DNA from: Eukaryota sp. GEM-RC1
Lineage: Eukaryota
DNA length: 64,000 nt
Direction: 5' to 3'
NCBI GenBank assembly: GCA_040285855.1
Contig: JAUFOQ010000010.1
Coordinates: 1,178,001-1,242,000, forward strand
This document shows, piece after piece, positions 3,547 through 57,178 of the stretch. A program made the position numbers and the translations under genes. The notes beneath the pieces are model-generated. The model worked only from the letters and a program-made list of their open reading frames with translations. It was not told the origin of the DNA and ran no database searches. Every line of letters begins with the position of its first letter. Within the stretch, counting starts at the first letter, position 1.

Positions 3547-4941
3547 TCAATTGAGTTGAAATATACCCTCTATATTTACTTTCCGATTAACCGTCAAAGC
3601 CTCTGCCAAAGCCTCGACACCTCTTTCTCCAATAGAGTTTCCAACTAGATCGAAAGTTGTCAATCTACCATTGACTTTTAACGCATCTGCCAGTGTTTTG
3701 GCACCTTTATCTCCAATAGAGTTTCCACCCAGATTAATACTTGTCACTGTAACATTGACTCTTAAAGCTTCTGCCAAAGCTCTGGCACCTTTATCTCCAA
3801 TAGAGTTGTTCCACAGATTAATACTTGTAGCTGTATCATTAACTTTTAAAGCCTCTGCTAATGCTCTAGCACCCCTTGCTCCAATACGATTTCCAGCTAG
3901 GTCAATGCTTGTAATCGTGGTGTTAACTTTTAAAGCATCTGCTAATGCTCTAGCACCTTTATCTCCAATATAGTTTCCACCCACATTAATACTTGTAATC
4001 TTGGTATTAACTCTGAACGCATCTGCCAAAGCTCTCGCACCGTTATCCCCAATGGAATTTCTACTTAGAATAACATATGTAAGTGTGAATTTAGCTTTCA
4101 ACGTCTCTGCCAAAGCTGTAGCACCGTTATCTTCAATTTCGTTGAACATCAGATTGACACTTGTAATTGTAACATTATCTTTTAACAAATCTGACAATAC
4201 GCTAACATCTTCCGCTACAATAGAATTGTGCGCTAAATTGAGACTTGTAACTGTGTTATCAACTTTCAATAATTCAATCAACGGTGAAAACATAGAATAC
4301 CATCCCCTAGGAACAGAAACACGCAAATGAAATTGTTTAAGACGAAGTTGCTCAAAGAATAAAGAAGAGTGGCTGAAAAAGCATAAGTCGCTGTTGTTTT
4401 TTAATTCTAATTCCAAACCTGAGATTTTGTGAGAATAATTGAGCATTTCTTCTTTTTTAAAGAAGCCGCTCACGTAGAAGAATACAGATTGTATATCTGT
4501 TCCAAAGAAAGAAGCAAATGAACAAAGTGGAGGAAGATCTTTTGGAACCACATGGAACGTGTTTGTTTCAAGAAACACCTTGGATGCATGTAGTGCAGAT
4601 TCAAAGAACCGATGGCTTACATAGCCAACTTTCTTAAAGAAAGTATGCATCTTGATCTTCAAAGTAACGAGCACTCGACGAGGTGAAGTACGATTCCCGT
4701 CTAGAGAGTATTTTGACAGATTACACAAGAAACACATATTGATCAAAGTTAGAAGTGTCTGTGGAAAGTACAAGTTATCGGAAGGAGAATCGACAGTCGA
4801 GCACAAAGTCGACGTCGAAAAGGTGTTAGGATTCGAAGATGATATACTAAAACAGGATCCATTACATTCAACAACGTCAGTAAGTGAAACGGTTTCATTC
4901 AATGAACGCCTGCTATCCATTGGATGTTCAGAATGAGACAT
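3547..4941 (-). CDS. LRR family A protein (Ser-rich leader, F-box-like core, 8 x 28-aa LRR)
   Basis: 464-aa ORF with KVNxTxTSIxLxxNxIGDxGARALAxAL repeats; shares FFKKVGYVSHxFFESAL core with six paralogues. Confidence 0.9.
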   Translation of the reverse strand: MSHSEHPMDSRRSLNETVSLTDVVECNGSCFSISSSNPNTFSTSTLCSTVDSPSDNLYFPQTLLTLINMCFLCNLSKYSLDGNRTSPRRVLVTLKIKMHTFFKKVGYVSHRFFESALHASKVFLETNTFHVVPKDLPPLCSFASFFGTDIQSVFFYVSGFFKKEEMLNYSHKISGLELELKNNSDLCFFSHSSLFFEQLRLKQFHLRVSVPRGWYSMFSPLIELLKVDNTVTSLNLAHNSIVAEDVSVLSDLLKDNVTITSVNLMFNEIEDNGATALAETLKAKFTLTYVILSRNSIGDNGARALADAFRVNTKITSINVGGNYIGDKGARALADALKVNTTITSIDLAGNRIGARGARALAEALKVNDTATSINLWNNSIGDKGARALAEALRVNVTVTSINLGGNSIGDKGAKTLADALKVNGRLTTFDLVGNSIGERGVEALAEALTVNRKVNIEGIFQLN

Positions 4942-5551: not shown

Positions 5552-7175
5552 ATGAAGCATAACACTGAAACAACTACTGATGGTACATCTTCCTTCCACA
5601 GTGAACCTCCTCGATCTTCTTGTAATGTAATAGCTGGCGAAGAACCCTTTGTTTCCACTCTACGCCCAAATCACGAAGAATATGAACTTCCTTCTGAAAC
5701 TCCCTTCACTGCGGAAATCGTGAACGTTGCTTACAGTGCAACAGAAGCCGACATTAGGCAAGCTTTCTCCTCTCTTCCCGTTAAAGAAGTTCGATCTCCT
5801 TCTAATATACCGGGTACGTTTTTTGTCGAATTTCTTGATGTTCAAGGACTCAAGCAATGTTTAGACCAGTACTGGATGTTTATGATCCATGACCGCCCAA
5901 TCCGTACCTATGTAGCCTCTGCTCCTCAGTTTTCTGTTATACCATTGAATACTAGTACCTTCTCTTCTAAACCTAATGCTGAACCTAAACCACTTGAACT
6001 TCGCCCTTTTACATCCCTCCTTCCAATCTCCTTCTAGGTGCTTACGAGTTCCGCAGCCCTTGCTAACTCTCATCAATGTTCACTTGTTGAGACTTATCTG
6101 CAAATCTTCTCTTGAATGGAATAATTATCTGTTTCGTCACCATTTTCTCAACTACTGTCACTTAACGAACGATATCCGTAAATTCTTTAAGAAAGTTGGT
6201 TATACAAGCAAAGGCTTTTTCGAATGTGCTCTACTAGCGACCAAGGTGTTTTTCCAAAGAAACACGCTTAATGTAGTCTCATATGATCTTCCTCAACTTG
6301 TTTCATTTGCTTCTTTCTTTGGAGCAGAAGTTCAATCTGTTTTCTTAGGTGTATGTGAGTCCTGTGATGTTGAAGAATTTCAGAGTTATTCACATGTTAT
6401 TTCAGGATTGGAATTGCGATTAGAGAATCATAATGATTTGGAGTTTTTGAACAAGTCTTCCCTATGCTTTCCACGTCTTAAGGAACTTCATGTTGACGTT
6501 ATTTCTTCTCAAGCTTTGCATTTATTTGATTTGTTAAAGGTTAATGAAACAGTTACATGTGTTCATCTTCGAGACAGCTACATTGGTGGTGAAGGTGTTA
6601 GAGCTTTAGCTGATGCATTGAAAGTTAATACGGCTGTTACAAGTCTTGATCTTAGTGGAAACTCTATTGAAGATAAAGTTGTTAGAGTTTTAGCAGATGT
6701 ATTGAAAGTTAATGCGGCTATTACTAGTCTTGATTTAAGTTATAACTCTATTGGAGATGACGGTGCTAGAGCTTTAGCAGATGCATTGAAAGTGAATACG
6801 ACTCTTATTAGTCTTGATCTGGGTGGAAACTGTATTCAAGATGAAGGTGTTAGAGCTTTGGCAGATGCGTTGACAGTTAATAAGACTCTTACTAGTCTTG
6901 ATCTTAGTGTTAACTCTGTTGGAGATGAAGGTGTTAAAGCTTTAGCAGATACATTGAAAGTTAATGCTTCAATAACCGTCCTTGATTTAAGGTGTAACTA
7001 TATTGGAGATGAAGGTGCCAGAGCTTTTGCTGACGTATTGAAGGTTAACAATTCGGTTACAAGTCTTGATCTGGATGAAAACGCTTTTGAAGATGAAGGT
7101 GCTGGAGCATTGTCAGAAGCGTTAAAAGTTAATAGTACAGTTAAACTAGTTGGACTAAGTTACTTTAATATGTAA
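5552..7175 (+). CDS. LRR family A protein with N-terminal eIF4B/eIF4H-like RRM, 7 LRRs; one apparent +1 frameshift near 6015
   Basis: ORFs 5552-6037 and 5976-7175 are collinear with the uninterrupted paralogue at 49219; removing one C from tccc restores TSSFQSPS. Confidence 0.85.
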
Positions 7176-9151: not shown

Positions 9152-10426
9152 TCATGTCCATGAGTCTTTTGTTTTGAAATTGCAAAACGTTATCAAAAGG
9201 TTAATCTGACGAATTTTAAAGTTACACTGCAGTAATTCTACTAAATGAACTGCACCTACATCACCAATAAAATTAGAACGAAGATTAATCCTGGTGATCG
9301 AAGGATGAACTTTGAATGCTTCAACTAAAGCTCTTGCACCTGTATCACGTATACAGTTGGAAGAAAGATCAATCACAGTAAGAGAACTATGAACTTTAAA
9401 TGCTTCGACCAATGAAATAATGCCCGCATTCCCAATGAAGTTATACCCTAAATTCATCTCAGAAATTGAAGAATTGACTTTTAAAGCCTCAGTAAGTACT
9501 AAGACCCCTGGCATACCAATTGAACAAAATTTTAAATCCATTTTAAGAACCGTGGAATTAACCATCAACATATTGGCTAATGCAATAACACCGTCGTTTC
9601 CAATAGAGTTATTATCAAGAACAAGATTTCTAATTGAAGAATTAACTTTTAACATTTCGGACAACGCTACAGCACCAGTACTGTCGATTGAAATCTTCCG
9701 TAGTTTGAGACAAGTAACTGTGGAATTGGTTGTCAGAGCGTGTGCTAATGAAATGACACCTCCATTACCAATAGAGTTATCACATAAATCAATCTGAGTA
9801 ATTACAGAATTAACCTTCAACACTTCACCTAACACCACAGCACCTTCAGAACTATACTTTAGATTTAGGTGAGTAATTGTAGGATGTGTTTTCAACGCTT
9901 CGGTTAATGTTCTGAAATTGGAATTATCAACATCCACAACAAGTCGTTTAAGATGCAAAAGGTAACAAGGAGAAGATACGTTTAGGAAATTTAAGTCATT
10001 TGGATTCTTCAATTGGACTTTGAGTCCTGCTATAATCTTAGAATAGATGCAACACTTTTCAATTGCAAAAGCCCGTTTTACAAATACAAAGACAGACAGA
10101 ATTTCTGCTTTAAACAGAGAATTGACGGCAGGAAGTAGGGGAAGCTCGACAGAAATCATGGGAAATGTGGTCTCTTTGAAAAACATTTTGATTGCAAGAA
10201 AGGAAGATTCAAAGAAGCGATGACTAGTGAGACCAAAACTGTGAATAAATGAATGGAGTTGCTGTACCAAACAAATAGTTGAGAGAGGACGTACAGGAAA
10301 ACAGGAATCACTATCAAGTATGGGCTTATAAAGACGACGCAGTAAATGGAGATGTATCGCCACTATATGCGGTTGTTCCAAACGGATAGTTTTGGAAGTG
10401 ATGGGAACCGAGATGGAGTCAGACAT
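9152..10426 (-). CDS. Divergent LRR family A protein, about 8 LRRs, short leader
   Basis: 424-aa ORF with IHLHLLR, SHRFFESSFLA core and 28-aa LRRs. Confidence 0.85.
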   Translation of the reverse strand: MSDSISVPITSKTIRLEQPHIVAIHLHLLRRLYKPILDSDSCFPVRPLSTICLVQQLHSFIHSFGLTSHRFFESSFLAIKMFFKETTFPMISVELPLLPAVNSLFKAEILSVFVFVKRAFAIEKCCIYSKIIAGLKVQLKNPNDLNFLNVSSPCYLLHLKRLVVDVDNSNFRTLTEALKTHPTITHLNLKYSSEGAVVLGEVLKVNSVITQIDLCDNSIGNGGVISLAHALTTNSTVTCLKLRKISIDSTGAVALSEMLKVNSSIRNLVLDNNSIGNDGVIALANMLMVNSTVLKMDLKFCSIGMPGVLVLTEALKVNSSISEMNLGYNFIGNAGIISLVEAFKVHSSLTVIDLSSNCIRDTGARALVEAFKVHPSITRINLRSNFIGDVGAVHLVELLQCNFKIRQINLLITFCNFKTKDSWT

Positions 10427-14260: not shown

Positions 14261-15156
14261 GAACAAGTCTCTTCATTATGTTTATTTGACCTGTTAAGAC
14301 TAAGTGATGTTTTTGAAGCTTTCCCTACTTTTAGTAATACAAATAAGTCATATTGAATGTGATTGTAATTGTTGGAAACAAATGTTGAAGACCTCTTTAG
14401 TTAGCTTAATATCATCTTTGTTTTCTCACACAATTTATAAGAATATGGACTTGAAAATTCTTGATATCGTAATTTCTTTAATAGCATTAGTTTTACATGG
14501 GTTTATTTTAGTCGAACAGAGTCAATGAAATTATTCAAAAATTATAATGTTTTGAAAAATATTGGTACTTTGTAGGTGTGTACATTCTTGTTTGAGTGAG
14601 AGAAGAAGGACGTTTTAATCAGCATTCACTTGACAACTCTTGGTCTTGTTAATTATAACAGCGTTGTTCTACTATTTTCGTCTAATTTTGAGACCAAACA
14701 AATGAAAATATATCACGAAACTTTGTGTTCAACAGTATTGTTCACAAATTATTTCAACAAATTTTACTTGCTGTTGAGTATTCTGGCTACATAAAATGGA
14801 GACACTGTCTGTATCTGAGTGAGACGAAGATCTAATGATTTTTAAAGTCATCATTGTATGCAAAAACACTATTGTCTGTAAATGGAAAACAACAAACCAG
14901 TTCAGCAGGTCTTTGTCTGAACATCACCTCCGTTTGCCATGTGTTCAACCATGAAAAATTAGTTCTTTTGTTTGAAAGCCAGAGTTTGAAGGTACTATTA
15001 CAGCATGTACTGTAAAAGTAGACATCCACACCAAACTTGTGGACCACTGAAACCCGTGTAATGTGAATGTGAATGTGAATGAAGCAGATTGACAAACACA
15101 ACACGGTGTGGTCTACAAGATTGATTCACCTCGGATTTCCCTTCACTCTACCTAAA

Positions 15157-16857
15157 ATGTCTAACCCCCAGTCTCCACTCAATAGTAGTCGTCCATCGGA
15201 TGATAGTGTTTCGGTTACTGACGTTGTTGAATGTAATAGAACATCTTCTAGTATCTCCTCTTCCCATCCTAGCGATAGTGCGTCATCCCCTTCGAGCTCC
15301 AATCTGCTGCACTTCCAACAGTCCCTACTTGTTCTCATTCACCTTCATTTTCTACGTCATATGTTAGCACCCCCTCTAGAATGGAATCAGTATGCTCCTC
15401 GTCGTTCTCTCAAAGATTTTATACTCTGGAAGAAAACCATACCTACATTCTTCAAGAAAGTTGGCTATGTCAGCCATCATTTCTTTGAATCCGCTCTACT
15501 CTCAACCAAGGTGTCCTTCGAATCAAAAACCTTTCATGCAACACCTGAAGATCTTCCTCAAATCTCTTCATTTGCTTCTTTCTTTGGAGCAGAGAAACAA
15601 TCAGTTTTCTTACACGTATACAGGAGTTTTAATGTTGACGAATTTCTTAGTTACTCTCATGTAATCTCAGGATTAAAATTGAAACTAAAGTACCACCGTG
15701 ACCTAGAGTTTCTTAACAACTCGGCCTTGTTATTTCCACGTCTTAAGCAACTTCGTGTTGCTGTCCGCGCTTCTATTTCTATGTCGCTTATAGAATTGTT
15801 GAAAGTTAATACTACGGTTACATTTGTTGTTCTGTATGGAAATTTAATTGAAGATGAAGGTGCTAGAGCTTTGGCAGATGCGTTAAAAGTTAATGTTACA
15901 GTTACAAGTATTAATCTTGGTGAAAACTCTATTTTTGATGAAGGTGCTAGAGCTTTGGCAGATGCGTTAAAAGTTAATGATACAGTTACAAGTATTAATC
16001 TAGGTGCCAACTTTATTGGCGATGAAGGTGCTAGAGCTTTGGCAGAGGTGTTAAAAGTTAATGATACATTTACAAGTATTAATCTAGGTGACAACTCTAT
16101 CACATTTGAAGGCGCTAGAGCTTTTGCAGATGCTTTAAAAGTTAATACTGTAGTTACAAATGTTGTTCTGTATGGAAACTCAATTGAAGATGAAGGTGCT
16201 AGAGCTTTGGCAGATGCGTTAAAAGTTAATGATACAGTTACAACTATTAATCTATTTGACAACTCTATTGGTGATGAAGGTGCTAAAGCTTTGGCAGATG
16301 CGTTAAAAGTTAATAGTACAGTTACAAGTATTGGTCTTGGTGTGAACTCTATTACATATGAGGGTGCTAGAGCTTTGGCAGATGCATTAAAGGTTAATAA
16401 TGTTGTTACTAATGTTGTTCTGTATGGAAACTCAATTGGACCTGAAGGTGCTAGAGCTTTGGCAGATGTGTTGAAAGTCAATACTGTAGTTACAAGTATT
16501 GATCTGGGTTCATGTCTTATTGGACCTGAAGGTGCTAGAGCTTTGGCAGATGTGTTGAAAGTCAATAATGTAGTTACAAGTATTGATCTGTGTTCAAACC
16601 ATATTGGACCTGAAGGCGCTAGAGCTTTGGCAGATGTGTTGAAAGTCAATACTATAATTACCAGTATTAATCTAGGTGACAACTCTATTGGTGATGAAGG
16701 TGCTGGAGCTTTGGCAGATTCGTTCAAAGTTAATGATACAGTTACAAGTATTAATCTTGGTGAGAACTCTATTACATATGAAGGTGCTGAAGCTTTGTCA
16801 GATGCGTTAAAAGTTAATAGCACAGTTAAAATAGCTGGAGTCCATCAACTCAATTGA
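15157..16857 (+). CDS. LRR family A protein (Ser-rich leader, 12 LRRs)
   Basis: ORF 15079-16857; start moved to ATG 15157 (MSNPQSP) by comparison with paralogues at 4941 and 35056. Confidence 0.9.
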   Translation: MSNPQSPLNSSRPSDDSVSVTDVVECNRTSSSISSSHPSDSASSPSSSNLLHFQQSLLVLIHLHFLRHMLAPPLEWNQYAPRRSLKDFILWKKTIPTFFKKVGYVSHHFFESALLSTKVSFESKTFHATPEDLPQISSFASFFGAEKQSVFLHVYRSFNVDEFLSYSHVISGLKLKLKYHRDLEFLNNSALLFPRLKQLRVAVRASISMSLIELLKVNTTVTFVVLYGNLIEDEGARALADALKVNVTVTSINLGENSIFDEGARALADALKVNDTVTSINLGANFIGDEGARALAEVLKVNDTFTSINLGDNSITFEGARAFADALKVNTVVTNVVLYGNSIEDEGARALADALKVNDTVTTINLFDNSIGDEGAKALADALKVNSTVTSIGLGVNSITYEGARALADALKVNNVVTNVVLYGNSIGPEGARALADVLKVNTVVTSIDLGSCLIGPEGARALADVLKVNNVVTSIDLCSNHIGPEGARALADVLKVNTIITSINLGDNSIGDEGAGALADSFKVNDTVTSINLGENSITYEGAEALSDALKVNSTVKIAGVHQLN

Positions 16858-25000: not shown

Positions 25001-25019
25001 TGAAGAAGGTTTTTATTAA

Positions 25020-26228
25020 GGAAAAATGTCAAAAACACTCATGTCCCAAATCTATATTTCATAACCACTCAAATGAAATTTGATATTACAAAAACACTCA
25101 TGAACCTTTTCTGATATACATACTTCACAAACAATGACTTTACTTATCTCCCTTCATGATTCACTCCGTCAATCTCCAACATACTTGCTCGGGCTTGAGA
25201 ATCAATCACGAGTCCCTCACAGCATCAAAGATTGTTGCAATTACCCCAGTTGTAACAGCAATTCAGCATGATCTACAAACTACAGCAGCCACCATTAGGA
25301 CAGTTGTTGCATCAAATGGAGCTACGGTTAACTATCAGAATGCTTACCGAGCTCAGAAGAAGATTAAAAAGGACTTGTATGGAAGCTTTGAAGAAGCTTA
25401 TGATGAAATTCAAGCTTACGTTCGGGAACTGCGTGCGTGCTACAATGATCCTATCATTGATCTAGATGTTACAGATGGCAGATAAGATGGCAGATAAGAT
25501 GGCGTAAAACTATGATAAAAATGGGGGAAAGACTAGAAAAGGCAAAGAAAATGCCCTGTATTGTAAAACAAGTGGCAGATGATGTAAGATCTTTATTAGG
25601 TAATGCAACAGCATTTACCATTGTTCCTGCTCAGAACCAACAGTTTGAGGTTCAGGGAGCAGATTCTGCTATTGTTGATGAGATGACGAAGAGCTGTTCA
25701 TGTGGAAAGTGGCAAGAAGACAAAGTCCCGTGTGTACATGCTGTTGCTGTTGCTGTGTTCATGAGAAAACCTCTAGAAGAGTTGATTGGTGAGGAATATC
25801 ATCAATCAACTCTGTTAAAATGCTATGGTACTTTGTTACCTGCTATTAGAGCCAGAAACAGCTGGATGGCTACTGAAGATGAAGTGCAAGAGCAAGTCGC
25901 GCTTCCAGTAGAAAAACGAGGAAGATGAAGGCCACGTACAAGAAGACTTACCAGCATTGGTGAACCAGAGATGAAGAAAGGACGAGGAAAGTACGGATGC
26001 AGTATCTGCAAGAAGAAGGGACATACAATGAAGACATGTCCCAACAAGTAGTAGATGGCATATCGATAGATAGATGAGATAATAGTAATCAAAATATAGT
26101 AAAACAATGACTTGGTTCTATTGATATCAATATTATAGTGGTCTAATGAGTGTTTTTTGTAATATCAAATTCCATTTGAGTGGTTATGAAATATAGATTT
26201 GGGACATGAGTGTTTTTGAATTTTACCC
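25020..26228 (+). mobile_element. Internally deleted Mutator/MULE transposon
   Basis: About 80-bp TIRs (gg..caaaaacactcatgtcccaaatctatatttcataaccactcaaatg); exact 9-bp TSD ttttattaa at 25011-25019 and 26229-26237; SWIM finger CSCGKWQEDKVPCVHA and knuckle CSICKKKGHTMKTC; DDE core missing. Confidence 0.93.
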
Positions 26229-26241
26229 TTTTATTAATCTA

Positions 26242-26678
26242 CACTCTTCACAGCAATTAGTCTGAATCAGAGTAATTATGGATATTCATATTTAGTCTGA
26301 ATGAATATCCCAAACACAAAAACTATCTTGAGCATGAAATCATGTTATGTCTTCATAAATGTTATGTATTACATCAGGATCGTTGTTGGTACCTTAAATA
26401 GAAGTATAAGACCGAACCAATTCAGAAACAGGACTGATCGGCCATCAAATTGCCTCTTTAAAATTCATAAGTGACCGAAATGTCTTTCATGCAAGTGCCA
26501 ATAATGGATGACACGGGCTGTATAGGGCAATTCAACCAAAGTGTCTAGGAAGAAAAGTTAAAAAAAAAGATTTATAACACAGTTTTACTCAAAAATATTG
26601 GACACTCCTAAAGCGGTCAAACAATAATTAGTCTGATTCAGACTAATAAGTGATTCAGACTAATTGTTGTGAAGAGTG
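26242..26678. mobile_element. Tc1/mariner-type MITE
   Basis: TIR cactcttcacagcaattagtctgaatca / tgattcagactaattgttgtgaagagtg with TA on both sides. Confidence 0.85.
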
Positions 26679-27112
26679 TAGATTCATGTACATACTCTTT
26701 CCATTACTGCTGTGAATTTCATTCCAAATGCATAAAGGCATCACCCTTCGCAAAGTCTTTTAAGACGAGCTAACTTCATAGATTCAAGATTCCTGATCTT
26801 TATGGTTTACATGTGAGTCCTTGGGTACATCTGTCTTAGGCTTATTTGGACAAGTTGTTTTGTTATGTCCAGGTTGAGAACATATACGACACTATAATAA
26901 TATACAATCCTTCTTGAAAAATGTTTTTTTTGGCGTTGTTTCGGTCAGAAACGTAAGTTGATGAAAATTTTGTGAATCAAACAGTCTTTTGGCACTACGA
27001 ATAAATAAGAATTAGGAAATAATTGGTTAGAATCTGATCAACACAGCGTTGTAGACATCAATATATTCACACTTTTTAATTTATTGTTGCAAATAAACTC
27101 TTCTGTGTGAGT

Positions 27113-27305: not shown

Positions 27306-27427
27306 TGTTAGCACAGCAAGTGTTAACACGTGTTCTAGTAGTGAACTGTAGCATTATTTTACTTAGATTATTCTCTCCCCTTATAAAGGTACCGTCCTTT
27401 TCACTTTCAGCCTTAAACAAGGCATCA
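27306..27427 (+). repeat. 5' LTR (122 bp)
   Basis: tgttagcac...ggcatca; identical by eye to 33382-33503. Confidence 0.97.
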
Positions 27428-27470
27428 ATAGCTATTGGCCGTACACTAAGGCCTATCTAACCTAATCTGT

Positions 27471-30400
27471 ATGTCAACCAGACCCCAATCTTCACTTCCA
27501 GCATCACACCTTCTTGCTGATCAGGTACGCTTCGTAGCACCGAAGCTGTCCTCCCTCTCCACGAATGCCGTCGCCCGCTTCGTCCAGGAAGTCTCTCACT
27601 TCCTCCAGGCCTCCGAGCCTGACCAATCCCAAAGTATTCCTTTGACAGAACCAACTGTGTTCCCTTCCGTCTCCGCCTCCATCCCTTCAGCCGCTGAACG
27701 CTTAGCTGAAGTCGAACAGATGATCCATGCCGCCTTAAAAGAATCTCACCTTGAAGGTTTTGACCCTGAAACCTTTGCCGCCTACTGGTCCGCCGCCAAG
27801 AAAGTCACAATCGCCGCCAACGACTCCCCTTCTCCTAAACCCTCTTCAGGAACCTCCATGCCCAGGTTTCTCCAAGATGATGCGGATGCTCTACAACGCC
27901 ACTTAAAGACCTCTAACTTATCTCACTCCTCTTCCTTCCCTCATCAACTTGATGACTGTAATGGCCCTTCGTTCTTCGATGACCCTCCTGTCCCTGAAGA
28001 CTTCCATCGCTTTATCCTCCCAAACATAATCAGCCTAATTCGTATTATGTGTCCAACCGCTCTTTCTAGCCAGGAAAACCTGTGGACTTACCTCCTATCC
28101 ACCATAGCCGCCAAAGACGCCTCAGAAGCCAGAAGATTGCTGAACTCACTCTCAATGAAAACGCCAGGCCGAGAACCACTTACATTCTACATCCTCGACC
28201 TCCAGAAAGCTGCCCAGAGATGCAAGAACTTCCTGAACATCTCCAGGCCGAAACCGCTAATGGAAAGTTTCATTCAAGGCTTCAAGCCCTACGCTTTAAA
28301 AGCAAATTGATGGATGAGTTCAAGATGAACATCATCCAGGATATCGATTCACTAATATCCAGAACGATCGCGCTCAACGAAACTATAACTCATGAAGAAA
28401 CGAACCCCAGACTCCGTAATGCTCAAAGAAGAAGTGATTTTAACTCTAACCCCATCTTTAGAACCAGAACTCCATATCCAAATTCCAACCTCCGAAACAA
28501 AGAACCAGCCGGCGAAAAGAAAAGCTGCTCTTTCTGTAAGAAAGACGGCCACGTTATCGAAGATTGCTTCGATAAGTCGTGTAAGAAGTCGAAACATTAT
28601 GATCCATCAGCTCCGCAAACGAAGAAGCCGTACTCAAATCCAAGGCTTCCAAGACCAACATTTGGAAACGCTAAAAGATCAACTAGAAGCTCTAAAAACA
28701 ATTTTGTCGCTTCCAGAGAGCAATGCTCTGAAAGTCCTTACTCTACCACTATCTCAGATGACGAACCCATAGAGTTCGAGCTAGAACTCCCAAAATTTCT
28801 ATCAAACACCTTCCTTTTGACAAATCCAAGAACGTCAACGCCCAAAGCCTCTGCCGAAACAATGGATGATCCTCTCCCAGTGAGTGTTCCGCTGGAATTA
28901 AGCTCTTCCGTAAAGGAATTGAGCCCAATAACAGGATCGGGTTTCGACCCTTTTCTACCAGTGCGAGATACGCCACAATGGGATGGTGACTCCAAAGTTA
29001 ACGCAGTGGTCAAAGCCGAAGCCAAGTCGAATCAAGGACCTTCCAAGTTACTATCTCTCAAAGTCCTTATAAATAACTCTCCTTTCGAAGCACTGATCGA
29101 CAGCGCTTGTGAAACCTCTTGCTTCTCAGAGGACATCGCGAAAAAAGCCGGATGCTCAATTGCCGCCAGCAGATTCAAGTTCACACTAGCAAATGGTACC
29201 AACATCCAATCCCCTGGAACCGCTAATTGCATACTGAGCTTTGAATTTGATCGTATCCTCTCTCCTTTGGTACACCTGAAATGCCAGATCCCAATTATAC
29301 CAGGAGTAAACCAATTCCTAATTGGATGTGACTTGCTGTCAAGCCTCGGGCTACTAAAGAAAACTCCCTGATGATCAACTTGAACAAAGAACATTCAAAG
29401 ATCACAGGAGCCGAAGCCACCCTGGACCACCTAAGGGTCGACACACCTAGGAAAGGCCTCGTCGCTGCAACGTCCACAACTTTAGACGTATCAGAAAGTA
29501 GAATCGAGCTTCCCAAAGAAACCGAAGAGAAATTGCTGAAAATTCTAAACAAACACAAAGACGTGTTCGGAAAACCCCATCCTGATGGCATAAAATGTAA
29601 GCCAATGACTATCCCGTTTTACAACGAGGGCACAACCTGCAAGAAAGCCCCCAGAAACCTAAATCCTACTAAATTGAGGATCGCCAACGAGATCTTTGAT
29701 GACCTCATCGAAGACGGATTCGCCGAAGAAACCTCAACTGAGTCCAAATTTAGCTCTCCAATCGTCTTGGTAATCTATCCTGACGGTAAGAAACCCAGAT
29801 TAACAGGGAGACTACTCAGGAACTGGAGGCGTGAACGCTTCCACCAAGTCAATTGAAGCCCACCTACCAAAGATATCAGACGTATCTATCTTCCTCTCAA
29901 ATGCCAACTTCATTTGCACACTAGACCTTCCGAAAGCATTTTGGCAAGTCCCGCTAGACCGAGCTGATTACCAGAAAACTACACTAAGCATCCCAGGCCG
30001 TTCAATATTCTTCAAAAGAGCCGCCTTCGGACTAAAGAACGTCCCTGCGTTCTTCCAGAACTTGATGCAAGACATCTTCTCCATGCCTAATGTCTTTATT
30101 TACATGGACGATGTAATCATCGCTGCTTGCACAGAAGAAGAACTGCTTTCCACGTTAAATGCCATACTAACGAAAGCAGCAGAACATAGAGTCCGCTTCG
30201 CCCTCCGAAAATGTGCATTCCTGACCTCAGAAAGCGCCATAAAGATCCTTGGAGCAATTTTCCATAAAAAGAAAAGATCTATAGACCCAGACAGAGTCAA
30301 ATGCATCATCAAGCTGCCTATTCCCTCAACGATAGGCGAGCTGCGCTCCTTTAACGGCTCAATTAACTATATCCGAGACTGGATACCTCACCTGTCGAAC

Positions 30401-33331
30401 TGCCTTCAACCTTTAACGGCCCTAACTAAAAAAGACGAGTCAGATCGCCGATCAGTTAAATCCAAATGGACAAGCTCGCACACGAACTGCTTCCCTAACC
30501 ATCAAGAATCTAATTTGTAACGCCTGCAATCTAGCTCTCCCCGACGCAGACGCAAAAATTGTAATCTCAACAGACGCCTCTGATAAAGCTATTAGCGGAG
30601 TAGTTTGGAAGAAGCTTGACAAGACCCCTACGACCTCTCCGCTAGAAGAACAAAAATTAGAACCAATCAGTTTTTTCTCGAAGACCTTGACGGATAGCCA
30701 AATGAACTGGCCAATAATCCAGAAGGAACTCTTCGCGATAATTTGCACCCTGAACCAGCCCATCATGGCCAACTTCTTGATGACTCGGCAGCTAACGATT
30801 TTCTGCGACCACAAGAACATCGTCTACCTGATTAACCAGCCAGAACGAAATCGGATCGTAACCCGCTGGATTCCCTTTCTATCTAACTTCTCCTTCCAAA
30901 TCATCCACGTCGAAGGTCCAAACAACGTATTCGCCGACCTCCTTTCACGTCTCACGCCCGCTAACCCCAGTTTAGAATCAGAATTACCTGAAACCTCAAC
31001 ATGCTTTAGCTTATTTTCAGTAGAACTCTACGACACTGAATACTACTTTGACGAAACCCCAACAAAAACCGAATGCCCCAAGTGTGGAGAACGCATGCCC
31101 TACTTAACCATGCCCGACCACATACCCTGTGAAGGCCCATACTTCGCATGCAGAAACTGCCTCAACAAACTAGAACCCCATGAAGTCTATAACGATGATG
31201 AACGCAGAGCCCTGCTTCACTTGTACCCGAAAGAAGACACGCCTATCAAAGACTACTGCGGCATCTTCCAGCTAGACAAAGCAGGTCCTCGGAAATACAT
31301 TGAACGCAGAGACGACCATATCAAGGAATTATGCTTCCGCTTCGTAAAGCACAAAGGTCTCATCAGAAGCCTAGAAAAGAAGAACTCTTCACTAAGGAAA
31401 CTAGTAGAACCTCCTGCCAAAATCAAAATAATTGAACCAGAATCGAAAATTCCATGTGCCCACTGCAATCACGGAACCACCGACTTGGAACTATGTGCCA
31501 GCCACCACCAAGTAACAACATATCAAGAACGACTGGTCTGCCACAGCTGCAAGAAATATACAACCGATCAGTTGCTGACAGAAGCCAAAGAAAAACTAAA
31601 GAAAAGAAAAACTAAAAACTCCCACGAGAAGCTCCTATCTTACGATGGCACAGGCCCCCTCGTATGCTATTCTTCCACAGATGAATCCCCTTATGATTCA
31701 AAAGAATCAGAAAACTCCGACTCTGATACCCCTTTACCCAAAAATGCTTCGCACTTCGCTGGTTTGGTCAGCCTCCTAAGAAACCAATCAGAATCATTCC
31801 AGAATGGCTCAAAGAAGAAATAGAGAAAGCCCGCAAAGAAAAAGAAGTCATCGACATAAGCTCTGATGAATATGAAGAAGACCCCTTACCTTCAATCACC
31901 TACTCAGTAAGAACAGTCGAAACTCAAGACACAACCTGGCTTGACACCCTGCGCACCCAACAGCAACTAGAACTAAAAGACTCCAGTGACAGATGCTCCT
32001 GGGACGCCGAAGCTCAAATGTTTGTCACCCCTGATAACAAAATCCTCGTTCCTGAATCTCTAAGAAAAGAGGTAATGTGGAACTTTCACGGATATGCTCA
32101 CTGTGGTCACCCTGCCTTGTGGCAATGTCTCAAAGACATAAAAAACAGCTGCTACTCTTGGCCAACATTAGAAACTGATTTAAAAAATCACATCGACTGT
32201 TGCCACTCATGTCAGAAGACAGCCCCAGCCCCCAAGACGAAAACCCAATCAACCGGATCCCTGTTTGCAATGAAACCGTTCGGCAATATCCACGCCGACA
32301 CTATAGGACCCTGGCCCACAGACAACCTTGGAAACAGGTACGTGCTAGTATTCGTAGACGCCTTTACGAGATACACCATCTTATGTCCCTCAGACAAAAT
32401 CTCCGCTACAAACTCAGCATACTGTCTTATCAACTCGGTATGCGCCAACTTCGGCATACCCGACATGATCCACTCAGATAACGGACCCGAGTTTTGTAAC
32501 GCCACCTTTAAAGCATTATGTGCCTTCCTGAACATAACTAACTCCTTCTCGCTCCCTCACCACCATCAAAGTAATGGCCTGGTTGAGCGAAGAAATCGTG
32601 AAATCAACCAAACACTGGAGAGATTTCTCCTAGACCTGAACGACTTCCAAAACTGGTCGACCCATCTTCCTATGGTGCAGTTGATGATCAACAACCAGCG
32701 CCACTCTGTAACCCGATGCACCCCATGGGAACTGATGTTTGGATCGCCAATCGATCCTAGAAAACCCGCTTCTGACCTGCTAGACCAACTAACCGCCAAG
32801 CCACTTAGAGAAACAGGCAACGTGTTTGTCGATGCCCTCTCTGCAAGAACCACCTACTTGAAAGGAAAGTGGGAAGAAGCAGCCAGAAACCAGCAAAGCC
32901 ATCTGGACAAACTTAGACCTAACTCAAAACCGGTCAAGAACCCCTTTGTCATTGGTGACCTCGTGCTTCGAAAGAACGACCAACCTCAGCGCCTGCATGG
33001 CTCATGGTTAGGCCCTGTTCAAGTGCTGGAAAGCTCTCCCGACTCCACGAAAGTTAAAATTCTAAACTTCGTCACAGGCAACGAACTCACAACCTCCAGC
33101 TTGCTCCTTCGCCTATTCATGGCCCACTCATCCAACAAGGAGTACCTGACCGCCATCGCCGCTATGGACCAACAAGAGTCTATACTTGTGAAGGTGCCTG
33201 ACATCGATCACAGATCTAACAGAGTCCATGTAGAATGGATAGACGGCTCTACATCTATGGAACCTCTCGATGAAATCCGCAAGACCACCGCATGGTCCAA
33301 GGCCAAGCACCTCCACGATGATCCCCTTTGA
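27471..33331 (+). CDS. Gag-Pol polyprotein, probably one ORF broken by about five single-base indels
   Basis: Knuckle CSFCKKDGHVIEDC, protease LIDSAC, RT LDLPKAFWQ and YMDD, RH TDASD..KELFA..CDHKN..ADLLSR, IN HHCC and HADT..SDNGPEF..NGLVER, WLGPV, chromo-like VHVEWIDGSTSMEPL. Confidence 0.9.
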
Positions 33332-33366
33332 AAACACTCGCTGCCCTTAAAGCCATGAGAGGCTTC

Positions 33367-33378
33367 AAGGAAGAAGAG
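33367..33378 (+). other. Polypurine tract
   Basis: aaggaagaagag, 3 nt before the 3' LTR. Confidence 0.85.
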
Positions 33379-33381
33379 CAT

Positions 33382-33503
33382 TGTTAGCACAGCAAGTGTT
33401 AACACGTGTTCTAGTAGTGAACTGTAGCATTATTTTACTTAGATTATTCTCTCCCCTTATAAAGGTACCGTCCTTTTCACTTTCAGCCTTAAACAAGGCA
33501 TCA
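33382..33503 (+). repeat. 3' LTR (122 bp)
   Basis: Identical to 27306-27427. Confidence 0.97.
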
Positions 33504-33691: not shown

Positions 33692-35056
33692 CTAAATGTC
33701 TAGTTTAACAACGCCAAAGAATTTTGATGTCTCTGCTAGAAGTCTAGCACCTTCATCTCCAATGGGATTATAATTCAGATTAACAGTTGTAATTGTGGAA
33801 TTGACCTTCAACACATCTGCTAAAATTCTAGCACCTTCATCTCCAATAGAGTTGTTCTCCAGCACAAGACTTTCCAATGTACTATTAACTTTTAACGCTT
33901 CTGCCAAAGCTCGAACACCTTCATCTCCAATAGATGTTCTCCTAATGTCGAGACTTTCCAATGTACTATTAACTTTTAACGCTTCTGCCAAAGCTCGAAC
34001 ACCTTCATCTCCAATGGAGTTTCTTCTCAGATCGATACTCGTAACTGAAGTATTAACTTTTAACGCATCTGCCAAAGCTCTAGCACCATCATCTCCAATA
34101 GAGTTGTAGCTCAGATTAACAATTGTAACTACATTATTATCTATTAACACCTGTGCCAAAGCTCTAGTACCATCATCCCCAATAGAGTTGTAACTCAGAC
34201 AAATATTTTTAACTGCCGTATTAACTTTCAACGCCTCTTCCAAAGCTCTAGCACCTTCAAGTCCAATAGAGTTGCTCGCCAGGTTAACAATTGTAACTGT
34301 AGTATTGACTTTTAATGCATCTGCTAAAGTTCGAGCACCTTCATCCCCAATATGGTTGGAGTCCAGATCAATACTGGTAATTGTAACATTAAATTTCAAT
34401 AATTCGATAAATGCCATACAAAGACAACGCTGCACAAACACATGAAGCTGTTTAAGACGTGGAAAAAACAAGGAAGACTTGTTCAGAAACTCCAAGTCAT
34501 TGTCATTCTTTAATTCCAATTCCAATCCTGAAATTACATTAGAATAATTGACAAATTTTTCAACATCAAAGATCCCATGTACATGCAAAAAAACAGACCG
34601 TAACTCTGCTCCGAAGAAAGAAGAAAATGAACAGAGTTGAGGAAGGCCCTTTGGAACGACATGAAACGTGTTTGTTTGGAAAAACACTTTCGTTGCTAGT
34701 AAAGAGGATTCAAAGAAGTGATGGCTTACATAGCCAAGTTTTTTGAAGAATTTGGAAAGATCTCTCTTTAAGTTAAGGAGAGCACGACAAGGATCGTCAC
34801 GATCATAATGAGAAGAATGTTCTAACAAATGATTGAGGAAATGGAGGTGGATCAAAACTAGAAGAGACTGTTGTAAGCGTAAGATACTGGGAGGAGAATG
34901 AGAGGACGGTGGAGCGGTCGATGTATCAGACCTAAGATTCGAAGAGGAGATACTAGAAGAGGATCCGTCACAATCAACACTGTCAAGAATTGAAACGGTT
35001 TGATCTAATGAAAGACTACGATTCAAGAGACGTTCAGATGAGTTATGAAATGACAT
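33692..35056 (-). CDS. LRR family A protein (Ser-rich leader, 8 LRRs)
   Basis: 454-aa ORF with family core and 28-aa LRRs. Confidence 0.9.
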   Translation of the reverse strand: MSFHNSSERLLNRSLSLDQTVSILDSVDCDGSSSSISSSNLRSDTSTAPPSSHSPPSILRLQQSLLVLIHLHFLNHLLEHSSHYDRDDPCRALLNLKRDLSKFFKKLGYVSHHFFESSLLATKVFFQTNTFHVVPKGLPQLCSFSSFFGAELRSVFLHVHGIFDVEKFVNYSNVISGLELELKNDNDLEFLNKSSLFFPRLKQLHVFVQRCLCMAFIELLKFNVTITSIDLDSNHIGDEGARTLADALKVNTTVTIVNLASNSIGLEGARALEEALKVNTAVKNICLSYNSIGDDGTRALAQVLIDNNVVTIVNLSYNSIGDDGARALADALKVNTSVTSIDLRRNSIGDEGVRALAEALKVNSTLESLDIRRTSIGDEGVRALAEALKVNSTLESLVLENNSIGDEGARILADVLKVNSTITTVNLNYNPIGDEGARLLAETSKFFGVVKLDI

Positions 35057-35691: not shown

Positions 35692-36690
35692 TCAAAACCC
35701 TGCTCTAACATCTCTAACATACATCAACTTCATTGTCAATGTTTTCATCACCTGAAGAATCAGTCCAATCAGTGTCACTCCACTCACTAGTGGATCATCT
35801 AGTGCCATCATCATTCCACAAGCTATCGTTCCACTGGTGGTATAGTAATTCAGGAACTTCATTATTAGGAACTTCCTCTGCTTTTCTTGGACGCTTACCT
35901 TTTGACCTTCTCTGAATCGTCTTTTCTGAGGTCTACCTCTTGGTACAGAGACTTTTGGCGGTTCCAAACAATTGACGGTTCTGTATCCGTAAGACTCAAC
36001 TCTTGTTTCAAATTGACTGAAACTATTCCCATTAGATAGGTTCTAAGGTAGTTATCGCTGAAATAGAAAGCTTCACCTCCATCAACAATGTTCTTCTTCA
36101 TAGCTAATATGGCTGCAACAGCATGTTCACAAGGATAACCAGTTTCTTGCCATCTTTTACACGTACACACTCTTTGTGAAACATTGACCATGAAGGTCTC
36201 CAAAGTGGAGTCTTCTTTTACAACCACTTCTACCGTTACATCACGAGTCACTTTGTTAGTACTCAGTGATCTTGCCTTTAAGGCAGAAGCTTTAACCAAA
36301 GACCAGAGCCTTGAAACTACTGCTGTTTCAAAGCTTTCGGCATCTGCAAGTCGGGTTTCATACCAACTAGTTAATTTATCACATATAGAATTGATCATGC
36401 GCACTATTGGCAATCCTCTTGTTCCAAGAAGCCATGCATTTAGACTTTCAATTAAGTTTGAGGTCAACCGTAACGCATACCCCGTACACCTTTGAGGACT
36501 TTCCACGAATTTCCTCCATCACACTGTCAAACTCTCTTACTAAATCTCTTTTAAATTGCTCTTGCTGCGTTCCAAATTAGTTTACTATATTTTGCACCCA
36601 TATTTTTGCATAAGTGACGTACACAGTATGCATGGAAGCTTGCTGGATAGACTTGCAAAAGTCACTTTTCTCTATCTGACACAAAAGTCA
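35692..36690 (-). pseudogene. MULE transposase remnant
   Basis: TSNLIESLNAWL, SWIM CTCKRWQETGYPCEHAVAA, PRGRPQKRR; frameshifted; TIRs not found. Confidence 0.8.
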
Positions 36691-42338: not shown

Positions 42339-43674
42339 CTAATATTTTACTTCAACAACTCTATTGACTTTCAGCGCCTCTGCCAAAGCTCTAGCACCTT
42401 CATCTCCAATAGAGTTAGAACTCAGTTCGATAGTTGTAATTGTTGTGTTAACTTTTAACGCCTCTGCCAAAGCTCTAGCACCTTCATCTCCAATAGCGTT
42501 AGACCTCAGATAAACACATGTAACTGTAGTATTAACTTTCAACGCCTCTGCCAAAGCTCTAGCACCATCATTTCTAATACAGTTGTAACTCATATTAACA
42601 AGAGTAACTGTATCATTAACTTTCAACGCCTCTGCCAAAGCTCTAGCACCTTCATCTCCAATATAGTTAGCCTGTAGATCAATAACAGTAACTGTAGCAT
42701 TAACTTTCAACGCGTCTGTCAATGCTCTGACATCTTCATCTCCAATAGAGTTATAACTGAGAGTAACAATTGTAATTGTAGCGTTGGTTTTTAACAATTC
42801 AATGAAAGCAATAAAAATAGAAGAATGAACACGCACATCAAGTTGCTTAAGACGTGGAAAGAACAAGGAAGACTTGTTGAGAAACTCCAAGTCATTGTGA
42901 TTCTCTAATTCCAATTCTAATCCAGAAATTACATTATCATAACTAAGAAATTCTTCAACTTTAAAGCTATCGTACACGTGTAAGAAAACAGATTGAATCT
43001 CTGCCCCAAAAAAAAGAAGCAAATGAAGAGAGTTGAGGAAGGTCATCAGGAATGACATGAAACGTGTTTGTTTGAAAAAGCACTTTGGTTGCTAGTAAAG
43101 CAGATTCGAAGAAATAATGACTTACATAACTAACTTTCTTAAAGACTGGTAATAAATCTTTTTTCAACTTGTAGAGATCGCCGCATCTATATTCATGACA
43201 TTCAAGAATGGACTTGAGCATACTACTCAGCATATGAAAATGAATGAGAATCAGCAAGGACTGTTGAAAGTGTATGCTGTGAGTAGATTGGAACGAGGTC
43301 GTCAAAGGGAGAAGTTCAAGTGGTTTGGGTTCAGTATTAGGTTTAGAAGAGAAGGTACTAGTATTCAATGGTTTAACAGAAGACTGAGAAGCAGAGGCTA
43401 CATGGGTACCTGGCATATTACTAGGAGAACGAACTTCTTTAACGGGAAGTGAGGAGAAAGCTTGAATAATGTCAGCTGCTGTTGCACTGTATGCAACGGT
43501 GGCGATTTCGGCAGTGAAGGGAGCTTCGAAGGGAAGCTCATATTCTTCGTGGGATGGACGTGGATTAGAAACGTGTGGTTCTCCACCAGTTCTAGAACTG
43601 AAGGAACGAAGAGGAGTATCGCACCCTTCAAGGGAAGATGTAACATCAGTACTGTTTCCAGTGTTAGGTTCCAT
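42339..43674 (-). CDS. LRR family A protein with internally deleted RRM, 5 LRRs; one apparent +1 frameshift
   Basis: ORFs 42967-43707 and 42339-43058 join at the A8 run 43008-43015 (FASFFGAE in paralogues); ATG 43674 (MEPNT) matches MEHNT / MKHNT. Confidence 0.85.
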
Positions 43675-48679: not shown

Positions 48680-49218
48680 TGGAAGTGAAATTATGCCACT
48701 AAAAAACACACCACAAATGATAACACTAGATAATTAATTACAGATTGTTACTAAACAAAAAAAATTCGGAGTAATGAAATTTGCTTTCACCACTAACTTA
48801 AATTAGTAATTTATATTTGAAAATCATCACCTTCTACTCTAAAACAAACATAAGTAACGGGAGTAGAATGGCCATTGAGAGTGAGAATGTAAGTTCCCTT
48901 GTAAGCTGACCACACTCTAAAAACACCAGTAACAACAGCTATAGAGTATTTGATGATTCCAATGTTTAGTTCATGATCTTCATCTTCCTATCTATCAATA
49001 CATTCACATAGACAGACTGCTTCATCAACAACTCGAGTGAAAATAGAAGATTCGTAGAACCATGATCCAATGACTTAAGAAAAGTGAACAGAAGGCGGAG
49101 GACATGACTGAGACTGAGATTTAGAGAGAGACATTGCTAGTTGCATGACATTTATTTAGGAAAAGAGTCTTTCAAAAGAGTTTAATGAGACATTTCATTA
49201 TCTTGAAGATCTTCCTTG

Positions 49219-51228
49219 ATGGAGCATAATACTGGAGAAAGAACTGTTGTTATATCTCCCTCCAGAGGCCGCGATCCTCCTCATCATTCCTTCAGTTCTA
49301 AAGCTGGCGAAGAACCCCATGTTTCTACCCCACGTCCATCCCACGAAGAATATGAACTTCCCTCTGAGGCCCCCTTCATTGCCGAAATCGCCACCGTTGC
49401 AAACAGTACAACAGAAGCTGACATCAAGCAAGCTTTCTCCTCTCTTCACGTTAAAGAAGTTCGATCTTCTAGTAATATGCTAGACACGTTTTTTGTCGAA
49501 TTTCTCGATGTTCAAGGACTCAAGCAAAGTTTAGATAAGTACTGGATGTTTAAGATCCATGGCCGCCCTATCCGTACCTATGTAGCCTCTGCTCCTCAGT
49601 CTTCTGTTGAACCATTGAATACTAGTACATTTTCTTTTAAACCTAACGCTGAACCTAAACCACTTATCCCTTTGACTTCCTCATTCCAATCTCCTTCCAG
49701 TTGCTTACACTTTCAGCAATCTTTGCTGATTCTCATTCATTTTCATATGCTGAGTAAAATGCTCAAGTCTATTCTTGAATGTGATGAATATAGATGCGGC
49801 GATCTCCACAAGTTGAAGAAAGATTTATTACCAGTCTTTAAGAAAGTTGCCTATTTAAGCCATCATTTCTTGGAATCTGCTCTTTTAGCAACAAAGGTGT
49901 TTTTTAAAACAAACATTTTTCATACCATCCCTGAAGATCTTCCTCAACTCTGTTCATTTGCTTCTTTCTTTGAAGCAAATATACAGTCTGTTTTCTTACA
50001 TGTCAGCGGGAGCTTTGATGTTGAAGAATTTCTTAGTTATTCTCCTATAATTTCAGGATTGGAACTAGTATTAACGAATCATAATGACTTGGAGTTTCTG
50101 AGCAATTCTTCTAGTTACTTTCCACTTCTCAACCAGCTGCATGTGTCTGTTGATCGTTCTATTTCTGTATCATTTATAGAATTATTGACAGAAAATACTT
50201 CAATTACAAGTATTAATCTCAAGGACAACTCTATTGGGCATGAAGGTGTCAGAGCTTTGGCAGAGGCATTAAAAGTTAACACTACAGTTACAAGTATTGA
50301 TCTGAGCAAGAACTTTATTGGAGATGAAGGTGCTAGAATTTTAGCAGATGTGTTGAAAATTAACACTACAATTTCAAATATTAATCTGGGGGACAACTCC
50401 ATTGGTGTTGAAGGTGCTAGAGCTTTAGCAGAGGTTTTGAAAGTAAATACTGAAGTTTCAAGTATTAATCTTTGCAAGAATTCTGTTGGCGCTGGAGGTG
50501 CTAGCGCTTTGGCAGAGGCGTTAAAAGTTAATGTTACTGTCAAAAGTATTAATTTGTGGAAGAACTCTATTGGAGCTGAAGGTTTTGAAGCTTTGTCAGA
50601 GGCGTTAAAATTTAACACTTCAGTTAAAGATATTAATTTGTTTAACAACTCCATTGGAGCTGCAGCTGTTAGAGTTTTTGCAGATGCTTTAAAAGTTAAC
50701 ACTACAATTACAAATATTAATCTGGGGGACAACTCTATCGGAGCTGTAGGTGCTACAGCTTTGGCAGAGGCGTTAAAAGTTAACACTACAATTACCAGTA
50801 TCCACCTCAGTATGAACTCTGTTGGAAATGAAGGTGCTACAGCTTTGGCAGAGGCGTTAAAAGTTAACACTACAATTACCAGTATTGGTTTGATCAAAAA
50901 CTCTATTGGAGATGAAGGTGCCAGATCTTTGGCAGAGTCGTTTAAAGTTAACACTACAATTGCAACTATTAATATGGACTTTAACTCTACTTCTGTTGAA
51001 GGTGCGAGAGCTTTTGCAGAGGCGTTGAAAGTTAACACTACAATTACGAATATTGGCATGGTGAATAATTCTATTAGAGCTGAAGGTGCTAAAGCTTTGG
51101 CAGATGCTTTAAAACTTAATCGTACTGTTTCAAGTATCTATTTGAGGTACAACTCTATTGGATCTGAAGGTGCTAAAGCTTTGGAAGAAGCGTTAAAAGT
51201 CAATAGCATTGTTGAAATAGACTATTAG
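49219..51228 (+). CDS. LRR family A protein with intact eIF4B/eIF4H-like RRM, 12 LRRs
   Basis: Uninterrupted ORF: RRM about 49357-49590, family core, then 12 x 28-aa LRR. Confidence 0.93.
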   Translation: MEHNTGERTVVISPSRGRDPPHHSFSSKAGEEPHVSTPRPSHEEYELPSEAPFIAEIATVANSTTEADIKQAFSSLHVKEVRSSSNMLDTFFVEFLDVQGLKQSLDKYWMFKIHGRPIRTYVASAPQSSVEPLNTSTFSFKPNAEPKPLIPLTSSFQSPSSCLHFQQSLLILIHFHMLSKMLKSILECDEYRCGDLHKLKKDLLPVFKKVAYLSHHFLESALLATKVFFKTNIFHTIPEDLPQLCSFASFFEANIQSVFLHVSGSFDVEEFLSYSPIISGLELVLTNHNDLEFLSNSSSYFPLLNQLHVSVDRSISVSFIELLTENTSITSINLKDNSIGHEGVRALAEALKVNTTVTSIDLSKNFIGDEGARILADVLKINTTISNINLGDNSIGVEGARALAEVLKVNTEVSSINLCKNSVGAGGASALAEALKVNVTVKSINLWKNSIGAEGFEALSEALKFNTSVKDINLFNNSIGAAAVRVFADALKVNTTITNINLGDNSIGAVGATALAEALKVNTTITSIHLSMNSVGNEGATALAEALKVNTTITSIGLIKNSIGDEGARSLAESFKVNTTIATINMDFNSTSVEGARAFAEALKVNTTITNIGMVNNSIRAEGAKALADALKLNRTVSSIYLRYNSIGSEGAKALEEALKVNSIVEIDY

Positions 51229-56531: not shown

Positions 56532-56766
56532 TATTGAAAATATCTTGAAATTTCCAATGAAGTATAGTAAAAGCGTGAATCAACCGGGAACGGTGTGCTG
56601 TCATTATATAACATCTGCTGAAGAATATATTTGAGAAGAAGTTGGTTCAATGGTATCATATTCTCGTTAATGAGATTATCAATGTTTTATTCTTGGAAAA
56701 GTACAATTATTGTAATAAATAAAACCATTTTCATTATCTTTTCACAAACGTAGAGTTTATAAGCTA

Positions 56767-57112: not shown

Positions 57113-57178
57113 TACTCTCCAACCATCAATAAATAAATGTCATTGAATTTTTTTCTCAGTCTCTGCTTTCAATCATAT

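Follow-up and report, generated by a model that had tools for sequence, protein, structure and literature searches.

Short shared tracts and divergent window codons in a leucine-rich repeat gene family of the metamonad isolate Eukaryota sp. GEM-RC1

In plant NB-LRR and receptor-like LRR proteins, the exposed strand and turn residues of the xxLxLxx motif are variable, the paralogues are clustered and recombination takes place within genes. Lamprey VLR cassette assembly and diversity-generating retroelements (DGRs) place a variable binding face on a constant scaffold. The HNWD repeats of Podospora anserina are 80-100% identical and carry four hypervariable codons, and unequal crossing-over together with ectopic conversion has been proposed for them (PMC13449251, PMC12222747); hnwd mutants have directly yielded repeats of chimeric make-up, a conversion of 88 bp and codon pairs not seen before (PMC2873952). 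Brown algal (Ectocarpus) repeats are reported to correspond each to one exon and to be shuffled as exons (PMC3341825).

The LRR genes analysed here lie in the 64-kb window, by which we mean the whole stretch of 64,000 nt under study. They resemble the Podospora HNWD/NWD NLRs (het-d, het-e, het-r; WD40), as described in those reports, in having similar repeats within one exon and a few hypervariable surface codons, in chimeric units that would stem from unequal crossing-over or short conversion, in apparent repeat gain and loss, and in occasional exchange between genes. They differ in repeat class, being RI-like LRRs of 28 residues, in having a metamonad host and in a lower mean DNA identity of the repeats (68-79% in genes A-F versus 80-100%). 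When identity to the own-gene majority was used as a proxy for the HIC threshold (Psim of at least 0.7, Dyrka/Ament-Velasquez) in place of T-REKS, five of seven genes passed (B 0.72, C 0.79, D 0.71, E 0.77 and F 0.73), with A at 0.69 and G at 0.63. Chimeric units and exchange within and between genes, which also belong to the HIC definition, were found as 11 tracts within genes, one tract common to genes D and F, and an extra unit in protein P0041. No Pfam match to a NACHT or NB-ARC family, the central ATPase of an NLR (STAND) protein, was obtained for gene D or among the 25 families listed of the 67 in 45 family proteins, and the same holds for TIR and transmembrane families. These lacks, a different LRR class and more regular repeats set the family apart from the plant NB-LRRs, with which it shares variable strand and turn residues, clustered paralogues and intragenic recombination. 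Like the brown algal repeats, it is a lineage-specific, fast-evolving family of candidate receptors in a non-animal eukaryote; unlike them, it has arrays free of interruptions, and exchange involves pieces of less than one repeat. The variable face on a constant scaffold recalls lamprey VLRs and DGRs, but there are no VLR-like silent donor cassettes within the 64 kb, no adenine-specific changes and no fast turnover of windows in gene duplicates, and the reverse transcriptase present is gypsy-type. The mechanism is not new; the family adds a lineage, for which we found no such description, to those in which LRR repeats evolve in concert while their binding codons vary. Our literature search gave no paper joining Skoliomonas and LRR, and the main text of the genome paper does not contain the word "leucine".

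The gene D array and its family

GEM-RC1 is an isolate of Skoliomonas, a metamonad that is anaerobic and free-living (PMC11316075). Among the proteins named for Eukaryota sp. GEM-RC1 is P0001 (GEMRC1_009687), which the N-terminal region of gene D matches at 100% identity. A profile scan of the 64-kb window listed 59 units, all of them Pfam LRR_6 repeats. Gene D belongs to the RI-like class (Pfam LRR_6, E 2.4e-46; 28-residue beta-alpha repeats with an LxxLxLxxNxL core), and its AlphaFold model is a clean RI-like solenoid with a 28-residue strand-helix period (pLDDT 92) that matches ribonuclease inhibitor and NLR LRRs in Foldseek. The features of gene D and two comparable places in genes F and C are as follows.

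33692..35056, minus strand: gene D, a 454-aa ORF with a family-specific N-terminal region and 8 RI-like LRR units; matches P0001 (GEMRC1_009687)
33728..34399, minus strand: eight 84-nt LRR units, D1-D8, in frame throughout (profile scan)
34016..34034, minus strand: D5 window, DLRRNS
33951..34015, minus strand: framework copy 1, D5 helix and D6 strand, 65 nt
33932..33950, minus strand: D6 window, DIRRTS, a diverged sister to the D5 window in which Thr takes the place of the conserved Asn
33867..33931, minus strand: framework copy 2, D6 helix and D7 strand, identical to copy 1
33848..33866, minus strand: D7 window, VLENNS
50748..50885, plus strand: 54-nt identical tracts of gene F (50748-50801 and 50832-50885), with window HLSMNS (50802-50820) between them and GLIKNS (50886-50904) after them
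16435..16583, plus strand: two framework blocks of gene C with 1 difference in 66 nt, flanking window DLGSCL (16500-16518; Cys at the conserved Asn position)

The other family genes of the 64-kb window are listed below. DNA statistics refer to the 52 units of genes A-F, leaving out the six units of the divergent gene G and one at 63308; DNA-level analysis covers the 64 kb, and the remaining paralogues were compared as proteins (334 units of 48 family proteins).

3547..4941, minus strand: paralogue A, 8 units
5976..7175, plus strand: paralogue B, 7 units
9152..10426, minus strand: divergent paralogue G, 6 units scored, excluded from the DNA statistics
15079..16857, plus strand: paralogue C, 12 units, with identical windows in the non-adjacent units C5/C8 and C4/C11
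42339..43707, minus strand: paralogue E, 5 units, its reading frame split by a T run into ORFs 42339-43058 and 42967-43707
49216..51228, plus strand: paralogue F, 12 units

The split of paralogue E at the T run (42967-43058, minus strand) marks either a pseudogene or a residual long-read error. Degenerate LRR-like ORFs lie at 54439-60274 (plus strand) and 63000-64000 (minus strand). The stretch 57137-58411 has the family N-terminal region and no regular 84-nt array, which indicates that related subfamilies are interspersed.

Family proteins are mostly 300-700 aa long. Word-based searches with N-terminal regions returned 40 and 49 proteins, in which every named match came from GEM-RC1, most of them on one 2.1-Mb contig, and the unnamed matches (2 and 3) were the window's own proteins. 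With matches confined to this isolate in these searches, the family appears to be lineage-specific, and two metagenome scans found no relative. A search with the repeats only gave generic NLRC3-like and RNI-like proteins from fungi, corals and metagenomes, and was not used. For the N-terminal region itself, Atlas feature matches to F-box-like clusters score 0.89-0.91 with only 105-124 of 256 features shared, and F-box is absent from the 25 of 67 Pfam families listed for the family. A model of the N-terminal 160 residues had no Foldseek match at E 0.001 and no VIA match at Z of at least 8, the best hit of the fold searches being to unrelated folds (Z 6.9). An F-box at the gene D N-terminus is a weak lead only. 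In some members an additional RRM-like domain lies at the N-terminus (Pfam RRM_1 in 7/45, best E 5e-05), and gene F (49216-49700, plus strand) appears to have the same segment.

The 64-kb window also contains mobile and other elements. A full-length Ty3/gypsy-type LTR retrotransposon at 27306-33503 (plus strand) encodes protease, RT, RNase H and integrase; its LTRs are identical, about 122 nt long and bounded by TG...CA, it has a 4-nt target duplication, and its coding region shifts frame several times. It ends about 190 nt from the gene D stop, and nothing beyond this proximity was found to link it to the LRR family. On the other side, a SWIM zinc-finger ORF at 35895-36506 (minus strand) is probably a fragment of a Mutator-type transposase, which the public gene model P0001 splices onto gene D; this may be a prediction error. 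Inverted repeats of 77 nt, 94% complementary and 1059 nt apart, at 25018-26230, with more at 26233-26687, resemble a non-autonomous DNA transposon. A B-box zinc-finger protein is encoded at 22944-24986 (minus strand) and an ORF with repeated HU/CCDC81 domains at 1-1197 (minus strand).

Shared tracts and the distribution of variation

The first-pass annotation had pointed to 33867-33931 and 33951-34015 as identical framework DNA. The identity was confirmed, and 65 nt is its maximal extent. The adjacent windows, on the minus strand, read DLRRNS, DIRRTS and VLENNS, and the first two indeed differ at 7 of 18 nt, of which three differences are plainly silent (GAT/GAC, AGA/AGG, TCC/TCT) and four give L>I and N>T. 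A second tract, reported as about 53 nt at 50749/50833, proved to be 54 nt long (50748-50801 against its copy at +84), with HLSMNS and GLIKNS following. In 1000 within-gene shuffles of codon columns, the longest chance identities were 43 nt for gene D and 47 nt for gene F, so both tracts, at 65 and 54 nt, reflect recent shared history. The gene C blocks around DLGSCL (16435-16583) are a third such case, absent from the earlier description.

Nineteen exact in-register tracts of at least 30 nt were found. None covers codons 13-14, 11 end at codons 4-5 and two end at codon 10, these being only the D and F tracts described above. Because raw length favours the conserved framework, tracts were ranked by the rarity of the bases that they share. 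Eleven within-gene tracts then reached at least 15 bits, versus a null mean of 0.87; four of them cover codons 13-14, being 18-28 nt long and starting at codons 8-9, and none spans a whole unit. Between genes, one 42-nt tract is shared, by genes D and F. The distance between two windows is nearly independent of that between their frameworks: the 6 pairs whose frameworks differ at 0-4 sites show 7.2 window differences, and the 525 pairs that differ at 15-20 show 7.7. The rare-base tracts and this independence indicate that units are mosaics of short pieces and that windows are copied too: depending on the pair of units, the sub-unit tracts, 18-65 nt long, take in a framework or a window. In this loose sense only, the 18-28-nt tracts that carry windows between units of one gene are cassette-like. 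Whole units have also been copied with unchanged windows (25 within-protein pairs, for example SLDSNS four times in P0015), and P0041 has one more unit than P0004. A random tract of 30-60 nt looks like a whole framework between two windows only 1-4% of the time. At the protein level, shared ancestry is lower across the window (0.012) than across the helix-strand junction (0.026), and linkage is weakest behind the best conserved stretch, codons 17-21, which is where exchange driven by homology should break it. The proposal that recombination between repeats homogenises the framework while windows stay different is thus supported by the mosaic tracts and the independence of distances, as well as by the sister windows and the simulation presented below.

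That variation is limited to the 19-nt window holds in part. Codons 13-14 are the most variable (3.6-3.8 bits of entropy in 334 units of 48 proteins) and the 334 units contain 290 distinct windows, but codons 5, 9, 19 and 23, inside the supposed framework, vary strongly, and codons 5, 9, 11, 16, 19 and 23 all exceed 2.2 bits in the same 334 units. The equation of the window with the concave strand face likewise needs narrowing: the beta-strand of the model comprises codons 9-11, so the window takes in the strand end and otherwise the loop that follows. Within genes, pS was 0.50 in the window versus 0.275 outside it, mainly because silent diversity in codons 17-27 is very low. The comparison of like with like does not show a silent hot spot in the window, N15 being less variable (0.25) than N4 (0.37), although L12, the most variable silent site (0.73), leans slightly towards one. 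At codons 13-14 pN/pS is 1.29 within genes, a value subject to saturation and recombination and obtained without a codon model. Rare codons are fixed by position across six genes (G21 GGT 46/48, A26 GCA 43/45, N15 AAC 42/49, L12 CTG 22/47), and AAC encodes 42/49 of the Asn residues at N15 versus 77/202 in non-repeat ORFs, which indicates that homogenisation has acted across the whole family, the conserved codons of the window included.

Recent gene duplicates bear directly on window-targeted mutagenesis. Three clusters contain a second near-identical gene, giving 22 aligned units after the last unit of P0004, which lies beside the inserted unit, was left out. In these pairs 1/132 window residues differ, versus 17/482 in the framework and 31/746 in the N-terminal region (48/1228 elsewhere in total), and none of 44 residues at codons 13-14 has changed. 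The deficit of window changes has a Fisher p of 0.08, and the 95% upper bound for the window (0.035) lies below the rate elsewhere (0.039). Departures of windows from the majority affect all four bases (A 0.26, C 0.33, G 0.49, T 0.18), and the D5/D6 changes involve C, G, T and A. The idea of mutagenesis aimed at the window is therefore not supported, as windows are not faster in the three recent duplicates, N15 keeps its rare AAC and there is no adenine-only or CpG bias.

The D6 window and its possible origins

Two arginines at codons 13-14 are found only in D5 and D6 among the 334 units of the 48 family proteins, so that DIRRTS and DLRRNS share one parent window and are sisters, likely from an older duplication. 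Their differences spare D, R, R and S, all four variable residues, and the only replacements are L>I and N>T. The LRR consensus allows I and T at these structural positions, the set at the Asn position being N/T/S/C. In 400,000 trials of seven random substitutions, the four residues were kept in 0.32%, and in 0.03% when a valid repeat was required as well. The D5 and D6 windows thus look old and constrained, and the frameworks between them differ at 0/65 sites; if the windows diverged slowly under selection, this framework would have been reset later. The suggestion that DIRRTS had come by cassette exchange from a foreign donor is not supported: its sister is the adjacent DLRRNS, and a donor search of the 64 kb found none. 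That the D6, C9 or F8 window came from a local donor was also rejected (best match in the 64 kb 14/19, equal to background), as was the D6 window as a D5/D7 chimera, since 7 edits remain whether indels are allowed or not. With a shift of 2 nt in register, 8 nt of the D6 window match the D7 window, as happens in 1/46 adjacent pairs.

D6 and C9 are the only 2 of 40 interior units without Asn15, and their flanking frameworks are also the most alike (P 0.0013, post hoc). The loss of Asn15 needs 2-3 bases in one codon in each of them. A very divergent window may produce the same association by blocking tracts on both sides.

The explanation that we consider probable is that conversion or unequal exchange resets the scaffold DNA and selection keeps the windows distinct, with no need for a mutator or a store of cassettes. 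An older unit duplication would have produced the sister windows D5 and D6, which would then have diverged slowly under selection; a recent in-register event, either a short gene conversion or an unequal exchange with the repeats misaligned by 84 nt, would have reset the framework. Tracts would stop where mismatches are dense and selection would remove events that overwrite a useful window, so that the framework would be the main place where long tracts persist. An unequal crossover between alleles that had long been separate would leave the same picture. In forward simulation, a model of conversion, stopping at heterology and selection against window loss, with no targeted mutation and with parameters tuned afterwards, contained a matching set in which the pattern appeared in 4.9% of interior units (observed 2/40), with mismatches of 0.41 in the window and 0.19 in the framework (observed 0.38 and 0.22). 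Three of 18 parameter sets with selection exceeded 2%, whereas none of 18 without it exceeded 1.6%. The matching set also predicts 6.5% of units with a near-identical framework and a close window, of which 0/40 were seen in the DNA. The simulation shows sufficiency under tuned parameters and is not proof. Further points against this explanation are the 1-4% of random tracts that look like a whole framework, the loss of Asn15 in D6 and C9, the out-of-register match of D6 to D7 and the modest pN/pS at codons 13-14.

Error-prone duplication of units would explain the same facts differently: after a break in the window, repair with a switch of template would copy the framework a second time and put a mutated window at the junction, so that units would be born with new binding faces. 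Among 52 windows, those of D6 and C9, whose frameworks differ at 0-1 sites, rank first and third in oddness, these two being also the only interior units that lack Asn15, and in D5/D6 and C9/C10 together 12/38 window sites versus 2/130 framework sites differ. The out-of-register match of D6 to the D7 window is also in its favour, odd windows occur in 2/5 genes with such triples versus 0/22 units in gene duplicates (p 0.03), and in yeast repair synthesis has been reported to cause mutations and to change templates within about 80 bp (PMC12891019). However, every change in D6 is silent or conservative and none touches the four variable residues, an outcome that random mutation with a valid repeat reaches in the 0.03% given above. 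Seven of 227 protein triples have 0-1 framework differences; the window is identical in four of them, one residue from a simple chimera in a fifth, and the other two are D6 and C9. Over 40 units framework similarity and window oddness are uncorrelated (rho 0.04), and blocking of tracts by a divergent window, as noted above, could mimic the association. We regard error-prone duplication as unlikely.

If a single 84-nt unit had simply been duplicated in tandem not long ago, and very fast positive selection had then changed its window without later conversion, this would fit the geometry of a window-plus-framework copy and the peak of variability at codons 13-14. It is a very improbable account, since all 7 changes lie in the window (P 0.001 even with empirical site rates), three are silent and none alters a variable residue, and windows have hardly changed in gene duplicates whose proteins have diverged by about 4%.

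An artefact of assembly or polishing, in which neighbouring repeats were homogenised or the middle window garbled, has some plausibility in a genus whose published assemblies combine R9 Nanopore reads with Illumina error-correction (PMC11316075). The break in gene E and the several frame changes of a retroelement with identical LTRs make residual errors in repeats plausible. Against this, all 8 units of the D array keep the reading frame, its window substitutions are biased towards silent ones, which sequencing error would not favour, and a 150-nt read covers two distinct windows and should map uniquely, so that an artefact at this place seems most improbable.

A dedicated diversification system, whether DGR- or deaminase-like hypermutation of the window or VLR-like programmed copying of donor cassettes, would suit the 290 distinct windows, the movement of windows in 18-28-nt tracts from codons 8-9 and the low shared ancestry across the window, but it is scarcely credible given the single window change in gene duplicates, the rare N15 codon retained, no A-only or CpG bias, no donor above background in the 64 kb, the presence of 59/59 scored units in ORF-bearing gene copies or one degenerate paralogue rather than a cassette array, a Ty3/gypsy-type element as the sole source of reverse transcriptase among 21 scanned ORFs, and weakest linkage where homology-driven exchange predicts it.

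Significance for the family and its host

Conversion or unequal exchange combined with selection on windows, the reading that we favour, extends the recipe of fungal and plant immune-type receptors to a metamonad and to a family that lacks the ATPase. The family may consist of variable binding proteins, possibly used in non-self recognition, and so provides a candidate repertoire for non-self recognition or for substrate adaptors in an unstudied anaerobe. The finding would gain greatly in weight if the less likely reading held and new units arose by mutation, with framework duplication coupled to error-prone or templated synthesis at the window: more than 50 genes of a free-living metamonad would then have an inbuilt source of novel binding faces.
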